Positions 1,690 through 64,000 of a stretch of 64,000 nt of DNA are shown here, piece by piece; within the stretch, counting starts at the first letter, position 1, and every line of letters starts with the position of its first letter. Source of the DNA: Saccostrea echinata (lineage: Eukaryota); assembly GCF_033153115.1 (NCBI RefSeq), contig NW_026889803.1, positions 12,028,001 to 12,092,000 of the forward strand, written 5' to 3'. The notes under the pieces were generated by a model, which had not been told where the DNA came from, searched no databases, and saw nothing but the letters and a program-made list of their open reading frames with translations. The translations under genes were made by a program, and so were the position numbers.

Positions 1690-2760
1690 ATGAAGCTTAC
1701 AGGGAATAAGACACCAAAAGGGAGTTGGGAAGCATTTGGGGAACATCTGTAATGGTACCTGTTACAATTATAACTAGTTTTACTTGTTTTGGCAAGAAGT
1801 CTTAGGTAAGCCTTTCCAATTTGACAGTTCCCACAAGCATATATACCCCGGATATGTAGATCTCATAAGAGGTCAGCACTTGTAAAGAAATTGTCTATAT
1901 AAACTTATAAATTGCTCCCAAACATTGATCTACACAAGTCCATCAGAACTCTGTATGCCTGTCCTTTCTCTTGCTGTCTAAATTCCCTTCCAGTATAAAC
2001 TTGAAAGCCATGCATGTAGCAAGTATCACTCTTGTTCAAGAAAGTGATAAACCATTAGGGCTGTGTCAATATATCGAATATTCAATATGTATCGATATTC
2101 AGGAATGTATCGAAAAAATAACTTCCAACACGTATCGGAAAGGCAGTTTTCCTTATAATTCTGTAAAAATGTAGGGAATTTCAGTTACCAAAGATTATTT
2201 TTAACTGTCTTGAATTAAAACTGGTCAATAATGAAATAAACATTAAGGAGATAGCACATCTTAGATAACTATTACAAAATACATGGACAACTATATTTTA
2301 ACGTTATGTTAGACTCCCCCAGTTTTTATCAAATTTATGCAATAAATGTCATTTACAAGACATTATTGAAAGAAGTAGTAAATAATCCAATATATCGCAT
2401 ATCGCTTTATAAAATATCGTATTGTATCGTATCGAAATATTTTGCTCAATACAGAGCCCTATAAACCATGGTACTTTCCACAGTTTTTCTGGTTGTTCTG
2501 GTTGACTCTTCATTGTTCCATACATGGAGATATCTCATACATGGAGGTATAGATCTCTGTTTTTATGTGAAGTGGTATCTCCACATTTATGTGAAGTGGT
2601 CCCTAGGCATGTTTCTGCCAAATGAAGTTGTCAGAAGCCATTTTCTTTGTCTCCAGTAGTCATTTTTGTTGGGCATTCTCTTACTACTCATGGCAAAGCA
2701 TAAGCCTATAAAGGCTTTCATATTAGAGTCCATTTTGCAGCATATGGTTGGGTTGGTTTT
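1690..2760 (-). pseudogene. Decayed piggyBac transposase fragment
   Basis: Minus-strand peptides RMPNKNDYW..FGRNMPRD, CYMHGFQVYTGR and VYIDNFFTS (second catalytic Asp motif), broken by frameshifts and by the 2056-2461 MITE. Confidence 0.7.
2056..2461. mobile_element. hAT-type MITE
   Basis: TAGGGCT...AGCCCTA ends, 8-bp TSD TAAACCAT (2048-2055; 2462-2469), tatcga subterminal repeats. Confidence 0.85.
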
Positions 2761-3239
2761 TTCTCACTCTCCTGTTCAACATTAATTTGCTGTTATGAAG
2801 TTTTAAAATTATACAAATTCTTACTACCAATTGAAAGAGAAATATGTTCAGAACAAAATGATATAAAAGTTGATAAAGTTCTATCAGCACAAGTCCATGA
2901 AGATTTCAAATGAATGATGTCATGGTTTCCCTAAAAATTAAATGTATACACTTTTTACAAGTTGGCTTTATATTTGTCCATTTTCTTCTGCTATAGTCTA
3001 CTGCCAGTAATAAACTTTTGTGTGATAGTCCTTGAATCAAGTGCTTCTTGCATTACACCACAACGGAACATTGCATTTTTTTCCCACATTTCCTGGTTGG
3101 TTTTGTTTGCTTCTTCAGATTTTCAGTTACAGAAAATTTGGGATGGTTGTTTTTATACATCTTTCTTTTTGCTTAAAATACAGACTGTATAGCCACTTCC
3201 TTTAGATGCAGGCCCATTGGATTTTTCATCAAGATGAGT

Positions 3240-4150
3240 CTCAGGTTCTGTATCAAGAAAACGGGGGCATTTGAATCCTCTCCTTTCTTGGCGATAATTC
3301 CCGATGAGATGGTGGGCTATATCAAAAAGGTAGCTCAGTATGTCTTGTTTTTTGTATTTGTTGGAGGGATTGCCTTCCAGAACTGATCCCTCTATTATAT
3401 AGGAATTACAAAGTGCAATTTCTCAAAAGGAGATTCCAGGAGGGGATTTTTGACTTAATCATCTTGCTGATCAAGTCAGTCAACACCTCCCATATACCTT
3501 ATAACTTTTTTTTTGTGTGTATCACAATTTTTGTGAAAATATGCCAAAACAATGTTATTTTTAATTAGTATAATCCTATTTTTCAATCATTTCAGTGGTT
3601 TAATAGCCATATATGTATTCTATATGGTACACATTCAGTGACAAATTTATGTGAGTTTGATTTGATTTTTTGCAATCTAAAAATGCTCAGAAAAAATCTG
3701 ATCATCATAAAAATTAACCTTTTATACAGTATGTGGCATATTCCTTCATAGTAGATGTGACAGGAATCTCAAGTTCAGTGCCATCTTTGTTTCCTCTGGT
3801 TGTGATGAGGTCCTCTTTTTCTGGTCTGTGATATGATGACAGGTAGTACAAGAGATGATTGCCCTTCCAATATTGTGTCAACAGTGGACCAAGACCCTTG
3901 TGTTTTCCTGTCTCAGCTTTTCATTTTATGGCAGTGCTTAGGTTGGTATATTTCACTATTTTTTTCAAATAGTTCCTGGGTATAAAATTTTTGAAAAATT
4001 CTACAGCTTTGCATGAAGCATCCAAAATATATATGGGGCCAGCAGGCTCATGAATATCCCTTCTGTTTTCTGTTCTCTCCCATCAACAAAATCGGGGCTC
4101 TGTAAGCGTCCTCAGGTTCAAAGCCTTCAAAATCTGAATCCTCGTCACTT
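3240..4150 (-). pseudogene. Decayed piggyBac transposase fragments
   Basis: Minus-strand DEDSDFEGFEPED (N-terminal acidic motif, cf. DSDEEFLGFNPED in 30127-31914) and YMGGVDxLDQ-like third-Asp motif near 3470-3500. Confidence 0.6.
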
Positions 4151-4179
4151 TTCACAAGGAGGGTTTACAAAGTCAAAAT

Positions 4180-5343
4180 TTTTGACATCATAAACTTCTT
4201 ATCTACCAGTGGTGCTGCTGTAGTTCACTACCACACACAGCACATCTTTCACTGTAGGGACAGTGTGAGGCTTATTTAACAGACAGATTTTGCAGCTACA
4301 AGAGTTTGCAGCTGGAATAAATGGTACACTTGTAAAGCCAATCTCAACTCAATATCGCCCTTAGACCAGTCAATTTTAACGTTGTGTTGAATAAGCATAG
4401 TAGCACAATTAGCCGAGAACATTTTGTGGAACTCATAAAATTTGTGTGGCCAAATATTAGCTGTTTCGACAACATGTGCAAGGTACAAATCTAGCTCTTC
4501 CGCCCTGATGGAAATGCTGAACACATAATTCTTTTATACCTGCCAAAGGCAACTTTAAATTCATCAAAAGACAGGGCTCTTTGTAACCTCTCATCTTTCT
4601 CTTGTGTTTTCTTTTTAACAGGTGTTGCGTAATTTGGAATGAGTAAAGTGTTTAAATTCACATCTTTACCTACTACGATCTGTTGGCGTACTTCTGGGGA
4701 AATAATATCGATGTCGCTGGTACACCGAAAGATGACCTAGACATCTGAGTTGTGTCAGTGCTTGTGCGTACGGGGTGTAGAATCGGGGGAAATGTGCTAG
4801 CCTGTGTCTGACATGCTGTCATGGCTGACTGTAGACTGAAATTGGAAATAGGTTCGCTCTTTTGGGTCACTTGTAGAAAAGTTTACTGACAGAGTTGCAG
4901 CGTGTTGACAAGAGCGCTCTCTAATTTAGCATGGTTTCCGAGGCCTTCCGAACTGCCCTGGGTGGAAGTTGGCTGCGATAGTGACGTGTCACTCCGTGAG
5001 TGATGAAGTAGTGATTGGGTCGTTGGCGGTATGGCGGGTATAGATTCCTGATTTTCATTACTAGTAGGGCTTGCTTGCGATACAATTCCTGCATTAATCA
5101 CAGCGTTCGTATTTACGACACTGGTGGAGATCTCACTGTCCCTTTGATTACCAGCATTGGCAGTATTTTCTGTTAACACAGGTTGTTTTTCTTTATTGTC
5201 TTCGTACAATTTCCTCAATTATTATTCAGGGGAATAGAAATATTGATTCCCAAGTCTTTTAAAGCCGTTTATAACTGAGCATTTGTGCAGTTTGCAGGAT
5301 TAGTAGAATCAATCGAGTTCTTGGACCTTTGTCTTGACGCCAT
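4180..5343 (-). pseudogene. YR (DIRS/Ngaro) retrotransposon gag remnant
   Basis: RKLYEDN N-terminal motif, GKDVNL-like and FYEFHKMFS..HNVKIDWSKGD motifs homologous to gag at 21808-23191 and 46157-47456; frameshifted. Confidence 0.8.
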
Positions 5344-62340: not shown

Positions 62341-62580
62341 TTATGCACTCCTGGGATGCCTAGGAATACAGGCGGGCAGTGGAATAATATCCTCGGGATC
62401 GCAGAAAATACATCCGTTGCACATGGCGGAGCAGTCCAGCGCAATGTCAGATAAGGCTTTGGCAATGTCGAAGTCACAGTCTACCAAAATGGCGTGGATG
62501 CGCATGGCCTCATAGTCGTAGAGAATGTACCACGTCAGAAGTCCAAAGAACTGTACGACCCTGGTAGTTACGGCGTCCAT
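62341..62580 (-). CDS. ORF0: 79-aa Cys-rich protein of unknown function
   Basis: Intact ATG to TAA; motif DCSAMCNGCIFCDPED; four homologues in the window. Confidence 0.8.
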   Translation of the reverse strand: MDAVTTRVVQFFGLLTWYILYDYEAMRIHAILVDCDFDIAKALSDIALDCSAMCNGCIFCDPEDIIPLPACIPRHPRSA

Positions 62581-62789
62581 GGTAAGTCACAATGGCACGA
62601 TTAAAACATGTACTTGATCGGCCTTGGACGGTCACACGGAACACACACACACACACACAAAAATTTTTTAACAAGTTTAAATCACAGAGTCAAACGACAT
62701 GGATTCTGCCTCGGAGGATTTTCTAGGAAAGTGATGCTTACTGGCCAAAACATGGGTTGAAATAGATGAATAAAGCGATTTGATTGGAT

Positions 62790-62925
62790 GAAACAGTGGT
62801 TGGATTTAAAAATAGTGCAGCCCGCAATTTGATTGGATAAAAATGACGTAAATAGGTGGTGCTAGTTAGCCACCGATAGAGGGGGTTTAAACAGAAATAG
62901 AAAACCCCAGGATATGATTGGATAA
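62790..62925 (-). promoter_or_regulatory. Putative CCAAT-box promoter in the 5' terminal repeat
   Basis: Three tgattggat (ATCCAATCA on the sense strand) at ~62781, ~62830, ~62915, retained in the diverged 16.8-17.0 kb copy. Confidence 0.5.
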
Positions 62926-63399
62926 TTAATAGGATCGTCCTCCGGGCAGAACCCATTTTTAAATTTAGCAATTAGACCCTTCCAGTGGAAGATTCCATTA
63001 TGGTTAACGTAAAATAAACAAAGAGCAAGTAGATACTGAAGAATACAATGTAAATTAATAATAATTAAACAACTTTAATAACACAAGGAACTCGCATCAG
63101 GTGATAGTCCCTATAACTCCATGCATGCAGGTTTGTTTTAGTAATTAATTGGTCATTATAAATTCTAGCACAACAAACCTGTCCTCACCATTTCTGGTAG
63201 ATAAGTATTCTAGTGTATAAACAAAAAAGTGTTTGTATAATATATAATGTATCTTGCACTAAATTTTAATTCTCAAGTTTATAGGTACTCGCCTTTAATC
63301 TTCTATATTCTTCCATATTGAAATACATCATGGTGATTTGACTGTTCCTTGTGTGGGTTTTAATTTTCTATACAACTTTTGGACACTACATCTAACATG

Positions 63400-64000
63400 G
63401 GTCTTAAGTGACAGCGTTAGCTGTTGCATTATTGGTTTGCGTAGCTGTTTGGCTTTGGGGAGAAGTTTGACGTATGGAGTGCATTAACAAACGTTTTTAT
63501 CCCACAGGAATAGTGGAAGGCAAGTCGTCTTCTGATAGCAGTGATAGAGCCTCCATACTGTCGTATCCAAGTTCTATTATGATATTTGCAGTACAGGTTG
63601 ATAATTTTTTTTCGATCTGCCCACTTTGCTACTCCTTCCTCGCCGACGATCAATTCAATTTCACCGTCTGACAACATGATGCAAGGTGATTTCAATATAA
63701 ACAGATGAAAAGTCAAATGCATATAAACAACAGTCTAATACAATCTACTGCAATTGCTGATTGCGCAGACGGCACACAGGAATTTGAACAAAATCCTCAG
63801 GGGTTGCAAAATTGCAGCCATTGCAAAAAGGGGAACAGTCCATTGAAATGTAGGACAGAGCATCGACGAGCACGTGATTGGCCTCCTGGGTAATTGCAAA
63901 AAGTCTGTCAATTTCCTCATCAGACATAACATACCAGGCTGGAATATTGAAAAACAAATGAACAGAAGAAAGCCTCAGCACCATGTTGCAAGTATTCACA
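63400..64000 (-). mobile_element. Further SAM-Gag YR element fragment (ORF0 63745-63999; gag ATG 63677), runs off the window
   Basis: DCSPFCNGCNFATPEDF; MLSDGEIELIVGEEGVAKWADRKK. Confidence 0.75.

Follow-up and report, generated by a model that had tools for sequence, protein, structure and literature searches.

A block of co-oriented piggyBac and Ngaro-like remnants in the oyster Saccostrea echinata as a candidate read-through piRNA cluster

The DNA analysed here (the window, 64,000 nucleotides of Saccostrea echinata contig NW_026889803.1; G000:C54:12028001-12092000 of a 923-Mb genome) lies behind a HES-family gene and carries 21 counted pieces of transposable elements (TEs) and related sequence, covering 36,073 of its 64,000 bases: five piggyBac, twelve tyrosine recombinase (YR) retrotransposon and two pogo-derived pieces, one BEN-domain and one PML-like remnant (Table 1). 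Window coordinates are used throughout, and 200 kb was added on either side. An earlier note, made from the letters alone, had counted about five piggyBac and about 14 YR pieces, close to our figures, and had held that all TE coding remnants share one orientation, as in flamenco-like clusters that feed PIWI-interacting RNAs (piRNAs). We confirm that the one-strand orientation of the coding remnants is real and that the block showing it is larger than the window, which is its left half: minus-strand pieces, 32 of them labelled, run from -3718 to 119266 (~123 kb; C54:12.024-12.147 Mb). Gag or 5'-only remnants make up 6 of the 10 coding YR remnants in the window, in line with the earlier remark that many copies are cut down in this way.

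The strand census was made by tblastn with 123 TE proteins, of which 73 were frames from the block, its sister loci (see below) and the flanks and 50 came from LTR (long terminal repeat), Crypton, pogo, Harbinger and Helitron loci elsewhere; the LINE queries were Penelope-like frames from the flanks only, and the library holds no Kolobok, Academ, Sola, P, Mutator or Polinton proteins, decayed plus-strand remnants of which might escape notice. In the window 29 of 30 merged coding blocks were on the minus strand and in the whole block 46 of 47 (six of them self-hits only). The sole plus-strand block (19706-19810) was rejected as a real sense TE, being the mirror arm of the palindrome in the non-coding insert of YR1. 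None of the 73 plus-strand open reading frames (ORFs) of at least 65 aa in the window matches a Pfam transposon family, so the earlier failure to find a credible plus-strand TE frame stands; matches among the 95 minus-strand ORFs were to RVT_1 (three), DDE_Tnp_1_7, zf-Tnp_2, BEN, PML_C, zf-CCCH and SAP, several of these matches scoring under the curated cut-off. The BEN match agrees with a BEN fragment noticed earlier on this strand, and a C2H2 fragment from the same source reduces to a loose C2H2 motif (~41319, minus). A SANT fragment was not recovered, and neither was a hammerhead-like motif, which gave no Rfam gathering match and is absent among the 8 matches at E<=1; two loose matches to the three-helix hammerhead core both lie within coding sequence and do not qualify as ribozymes. 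The strand rule is confined to coding remnants, as the SINE (short interspersed element) of Table 1 is on the plus strand, SINE orientation is mixed and non-coding repeats of the MITE (miniature inverted-repeat TE) or satellite type occur in both directions. Past the right end of the block YR pieces on the plus strand follow at 122 and 134 kb, and then one minus-strand piece at 149 kb; the farther flanks hold 18 coding blocks, nine on each strand.

Table 1. Features of the window
Feature	Position	Strand	Remarks
piggyBac transposase remnant	1734..2777	-	76-83% nt to copy at 94 kb
piggyBac C-terminal remnant	3087..4164	-	perhaps the same element as 7734-8087, with YR insertions between
YR retrotransposon gag remnant	4190..5609	-	
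YR gag remnant with CCCH finger	5657..6651	-	
piggyBac remnant	7734..8087	-	81% nt to a C10-locus copy
High-copy non-coding repeat with 166-bp tandem array	9510..10627	both orientations occur	
SINE-like repeat, (ACAA)n tail, 9-bp target duplication	11303..11521	+	non-coding exception to strand rule
pogo-derived non-autonomous element	12704..13992	-	orientation taken from coding pogo copy at C10 locus
piggyBac 3' remnant	14001..14693	-	73% nt to 107258-107633
SAM-gag YR family, 5'-terminal piece	16571..17169	-	
YR1, young near full-length Ngaro-like element (gag, reverse transcriptase (RT)/RNase H, recombinase)	17704..23540	-	sits in pogo-derived element
729-bp non-coding insert breaking YR1 RNase H frame, with 170-bp palindrome	19638..20366	.	
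Second pogo-derived element	23541..25100	-	88-91% to first; nested in older repeat 17168-25252
YR5 gag remnant	27859..34361	-	no second copy at this identity; interrupted by three later insertions
PB1, intact piggyBac, 597-codon frame	29543..32238	-	TTAA|CCC...GGG|TTAA; 99.8% to two dispersed copies
BEN-domain exon remnant, duplicated	36680..37026	-	relative at C29 locus obeys same orientation rule
YR2, decayed full-length Ngaro-like element	41311..48524	-	split direct repeats A1 (48323-48524) ... B1, A2, B2
SAM-gag YR 5'-terminal piece inside YR2	47587..48292	-	96.6% to 62641-63084
YR gag + RT-start remnant	49792..50645	-	
PML C-terminal-like domain remnant	52036..52416	-	
YR3, SAM-gag + RT remnant	52863..55167	-	
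YR RNase H remnant	55525..55824	-	
YR4, SAM-gag 5' remnant	61655..63084	-	
YR7, SAM-gag 5' remnant	63434..64000	-	continues beyond window end

That the shared strand might come from local duplication, from self-targeting by YR elements or from recombinational loss of inverted repeat pairs was weighed against the relationships between the pieces. There are some internal duplicates (96.6% over 445 bp; the pogo pair at 88-91%) and the 21 alignable pairs among the 496 formed by the 32 block pieces are all direct; 475 pairs, however, share no alignable DNA, only two reach at least 85% over at least 400 bp, and the collapse to a few tandem duplicates, named earlier as a refuting case, did not occur. 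The dispersed copies of YR1 give no sign of self-targeting, shared families stand, in the alignments listed, in a different order at the sister loci, and non-homologous classes cannot be brought into line by losing inverted pairs, so that this explanation is largely refuted and we give it very little credence. Successive captures can be followed instead in the nesting: an old repeat contains a pogo-derived element, this contains YR1, and YR1 in turn contains the 729-bp insert, which is missing from its dispersed copies; PB1 is among the three insertions that interrupt the YR5 gag. The chance of about 6e-5 that the earlier note attached to 15 independent insertions overstated their independence, since 9-10 insertions with symmetric targets remain across the block once possible pieces of the same element are merged (P 0.002-0.004; the Tc1 label used in this count is a reading of the sequence without a Pfam match).

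Two young insertions show that the target sequence cannot fix the strand. PB1 has the marks of a piggyBac element (TTAA duplication, CCC...GGG inverted ends, DDE_Tnp_1_7 and a C-terminal zinc finger), and in another sample the two sides of its site are joined by a single low-depth contig, which is weak evidence. YR1 is 98-99% identical to eight dispersed copies, which occupy unrelated AT-rich sites. PB1 sits in a symmetric TTAA, in keeping with the earlier point that YR self-targeting leaves the piggyBac bias unexplained. As the TTAA target is symmetric, orientation must stem from selection or transcription, and a trap model becomes testable with such elements. The split repeats of YR2 (A1/A2 197 of 202 positions identical, B1/B2 88%, with a 53-bp tandem array between A2 and B2) have the same A1 ... 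B1 A2 B2 order as one dispersed YR1 copy, as is found in Ngaro-like elements; the order is given for both Ngaro-like and PAT-like elements in PMC9210276. Three internally deleted YR1 copies were also seen (L063, L167 and L171), and the identical breakpoint of L063 and L167 (gag start fused to recombinase end) suggests that a non-autonomous YR1 derivative has moved.

Domain searches of the genome (recombinase, piggyBac, pogo) reduced to at least 398 elements. Among the matches listed, clusters of at least four elements in 40-kb steps were found at C10:10.50-10.59 Mb (11 of 12 minus), C30:0.04-0.09 Mb (5/5) and C56:22.02-22.05 Mb (4/4), and the window block appears as two groups of three, all minus, the other four groups of three being mixed. 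With the tblastn library 34 of 36 coding blocks were co-oriented at the C10 locus (10.499-10.594 Mb, L055-L065), 42 of 42 at C30 and 27 of 28 and 9 of 9 at its C56 counterpart; at C29:10.22-10.31 Mb all blocks (13/13 and 5/5) were on the plus strand. The C30 (3-111 kb) and C56 (22.00-22.11 Mb) blocks are collinear and 90-98% identical with many insertion differences, and are likely to be haplotypes of one block, useful to date captures; they were counted as one, giving four loci with the window block. A stretch of ~21 kb with a P2RX7_C frame on the plus strand is extra to C30, and the C29 block (10.225-10.313 Mb, L153-L158 and L187-L189) is nearly piggyBac-only. Control regions were mixed (C54:23.27-23.39 Mb, 3 plus and 6 minus; C22, 2 plus and 6 minus; C25, 3 plus and 1 minus), while small stretches on C45 and C9 with few elements were all minus (4 and 5 blocks). 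Neighbours within 50 kb, among the matches listed, were co-oriented in 21 of 23 pairs inside the loci versus 13 of 27 elsewhere (Fisher P 0.002), and in a library-free blastn comparison 147 of 178 segments common to the loci were co-oriented versus 422 of 777 shared with other DNA. The sister loci were drawn from the same element lists, which makes their enrichment post hoc; that of the window block is not, and among the matches listed it amounts to three piggyBac and three YR elements against 0.015 and 0.02 expected.

These loci also bear on the idea of a single giant mobile element or endogenous virus with co-oriented cargo. Its size, its one coding strand and the recurrence of the same families at four loci would suit such an element, but the nested pieces have target duplications of their own, the loci show no common ends or gene order in the alignments listed, and there are no hallmark genes among 260 ORFs; we find this explanation scarcely credible. 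The possibility that insertion is oriented without selection, with piggyBac and Ngaro-like integration preferring transcribed gene ends and inserting antisense, is helped by unselected piggyBac insertions in mouse cells, which are biased antisense in 3' UTRs (untranslated regions) and exons (PMC3983033). The same source, however, grades this bias as relatively weak, the near-total bias would be needed alike from unrelated enzymes (the DDE enzyme of piggyBac, those of pogo and hAT, and the tyrosine recombinase), and neighbours of these families elsewhere follow no common strand in the pair counts above; this too we consider improbable. Nor do small-RNA genes offer a target: there is no Rfam family in the window and no tRNA gene in the 28 sources scanned, hence no small-RNA gene array serving for insertion.

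Which families the loci hold was examined with queries from outside, namely coding sequence from dispersed copies (20 of 122 piggyBac rows, 20 of 150 YR rows and 50 loci of other classes), clustered by family and aligned by blastn to 390.5 kb of the loci and 425 kb of flank. Thirteen of 15 piggyBac families match the loci (seven at >=80%; 99 redundant hits), as do all ten families of the Ngaro clade (six at >=80%; 88 redundant hits), and all 187 of these hits are antisense to the predicted precursor. Only two of nine pogo families match, one of them sense, and no locus match was obtained with other YR (0/8), LTR (0/5), Harbinger (0/7), Helitron (0/3) or Crypton (0/4) families, 0 of 27 together; the 425 kb of flank gave no family match at all. 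The earlier picture of a library of many families specialised on piggyBac and YR elements is thereby supported. No LTR block was found in the four loci by tblastn with 12 LTR pol queries, so that antisense Gypsy enrichment is missing; this is no significant depletion, about one piece being expected from 1922 genome-wide candidates.

To the left of the block a G-patch gene (minus) and the HES-family bHLH gene (plus) stand head to head. The HES gene has a WRPW end and points into the block; ~6.1 kb separate its stop at -9860 from the first antisense piece. Between the end of HES and the MLF-like exons on the minus strand at 173.7 kb the scan recognised no host exon (it took in ORFs from 62 aa upward, and short exons could escape it), and the case in which the window is an intron of a plus-strand gene, raised earlier as refuting, did not hold. 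CpG is more frequent in a patch 6.5-8.5 kb left of the window, which is not diagnostic of a promoter. A similar arrangement recurs at C29, where the cereblon stop is 5.5 kb ahead of the block, and at C56, where the MITD1 stop is 10.9 kb ahead of the first minus-strand piece; both genes are directed inward and the cargo is antisense, so an inward-pointing upstream gene that ends close to the block, as in read-through clusters of the mosquito type, is present at three of the four loci. Cereblon is itself head to head with a DnaJ gene, paralleling HES and its G-patch neighbour. At C10 a possible plus-strand exon to the left of the locus gave no match.

Such an anatomy speaks for transcription that reads through from the upstream gene rather than for a promoter of the block's own. 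From the observed layout, nesting and family spectrum, the three sister loci and the inward upstream genes at three of the four loci we infer a transcript, its strand, piRNA production and selection. Plus-strand transcription would not stop at the HES poly(A) site but continue through the block; cleavage of this long RNA would yield piRNAs antisense to piggyBac, Ngaro-like and pogo elements, and selection would retain antisense insertions. That the block serves as a one-strand piRNA cluster fed by read-through, with piggyBac and Ngaro-like elements as its speciality, we think probable, if by no wide measure, and read-through into a piRNA-feeding trap is, with the same reserve, the most economical reading.

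Another account dispenses with piRNAs: the region would be prone to insertions and covered by a long non-coding or read-through RNA, sense insertions, with their splice and stop signals, being purged and antisense ones tolerated. It accounts equally well for the strand and for the orientation of the upstream gene, a spliced long non-coding RNA would not show in ORF scans, and the same families are regionally enriched elsewhere (among the matches listed). It predicts no enrichment, yet the six elements of the window block far exceed expectation; nor does it foresee the family spectrum of 13 of 15 piggyBac families and 0 of 27 LTR, Harbinger, Helitron, Crypton and other YR families, and flanking methylated gene regions are without any such cargo. 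We judge purging alone to be unlikely, if well worth keeping in mind.

Several observations weigh against a read-through piRNA cluster. AATAAA shows no depletion on the strand predicted for the precursor, where it is commoner (193 versus 147), and a canonical AATAAA lies 129 bases past the HES stop; base skews are about zero once ORFs are masked, the gene controls disagreeing with one another. No inward-pointing gene was found at C10, where TTC4, 16 kb upstream, faces away, and this locus has two plus-strand pogo pieces in its middle; one more lies just upstream of the C56 block. Three of three antisense gene-cargo arrangements give a chance P of only 0.125. The Ngaro-clade queries were selected by likeness to a window protein, and the same families also cluster in mixed orientation in megabase domains elsewhere (among the matches listed), so that part of the enrichment is regional. 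Published oyster clusters, moreover, are enriched for Gypsy, R2, Dada, Polinton and BEL (PMC6128900), unlike the families of the block. Splice-donor counts gave no indication of the transcribed strand. Contigs of four of six sequencing runs (only guessed to be RNA, perhaps DNA, and strandless) cover parts of 28001-48000, including near-identical pieces of the single-copy stretches 32229-32746 and 37281-37878 at depth 2-16 and none at 44.7-46.7 kb; they weigh neither for nor against transcription.

What is known of one-strand trap clusters comes mostly from insects, where they act against LTR retroviruses or viral inserts. In mosquitoes most core piRNA clusters are described as arising by read-through (10.1101/2022.08.22.504762), and these resemble the oyster block in being intergenic, one-stranded, downstream of an ordinary gene of the same direction, antisense in cargo and trap-like. 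Their cargo is non-retroviral viral inserts, that of the oyster piggyBac, Ngaro-like and pogo elements; read-through and piRNAs are demonstrated there and predicted here, and in the oyster the stop precedes the first TE by 5-11 kb. Flamenco and flam-like clusters of Drosophila (PMC10643416) likewise consist of nested, strongly strand-biased TE pieces over ~100 kb, and flam-like loci predicted by strand bias alone were later validated; the block is comparable in size, density, bias and non-telomeric position (123 kb, 46/47, genes on both sides). The model in the Fig. 8 legend of that paper tolerates sense pieces at the far end of a cluster, and the two plus-strand YR pieces of the oyster, at 122 and 134 kb, lie where this model expects them. 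In Drosophila, however, the flam-like bias is described as exclusively Gypsy LTR and the clusters as canonical transcription units, whereas DNA transposons dominate in the oyster. The flamenco-like label given earlier thus fits the layout and, without Gypsy, not the cargo, and the earlier interpretation as a whole is partly supported: the block is a candidate one-strand piRNA cluster, which may be flamenco-like in working.

Bivalves make piRNAs in soma and germline alike; cluster classes vary in their TE content, with a preference for young elements, piRNA mapping in one direction was observed in pearl oyster, and enrichments in Crassostrea gigas and Lymnaea clusters comprise Gypsy, R2, Dada, Polinton, BEL, Kolobok and hAT (PMC6128900, PMC11067994, PMC6342924); the passages drawn on from these papers hold no analysis of TE orientation in mollusc clusters. 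The main text and five supplements of PMC6128900 do not name piggyBac, DIRS or Ngaro, and a literature search returned no mollusc report of a one-way piggyBac/Ngaro layout behind genes. The wider proposition is one we advance tentatively, as having slightly less than an even chance: that oysters hold a set of read-through one-strand clusters behind HES, cereblon and MITD1, a sequence-predictable flamenco analogue in Lophotrochozoa that is still capturing insertions and archives nearly all piggyBac families and one Ngaro clade in antisense while bypassing the far commoner LTR and Harbinger elements. The sequence yields the exact positions of four loci, the strand predicted for the precursor and a list of targets; if true, a bivalve trap against cut-and-paste piggyBacs would mean that antisense trapping behind gene ends is not bound to retroviruses.

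Some further features were noted. In the SAM-gag YR family (52863-55167 and 61655-64000; L031:1546-2562) gag opens with a SAM-like domain and a small frame lies upstream; the family has 145 relatives, the named ones mostly bivalve, and the named relatives of a gag protein immediately beyond the right edge of the window come from Saccostrea, Ostrea and Mytilus. Strong hairpins with sub-threshold Rfam microRNA matches lie at 44673-44732 (between RNase H and recombinase of YR2), 56166-56595 and 60150-60261. In the flanks a tandem OTU and Mab-21-like gene family has several copies on both strands (L044-L050, 195-264 kb of the extended window), and several repetitive Met/Pro/Gly- and Met/Ser-rich frames (L012-L015, -186 to -157 kb) possibly encode shell or secreted proteins.

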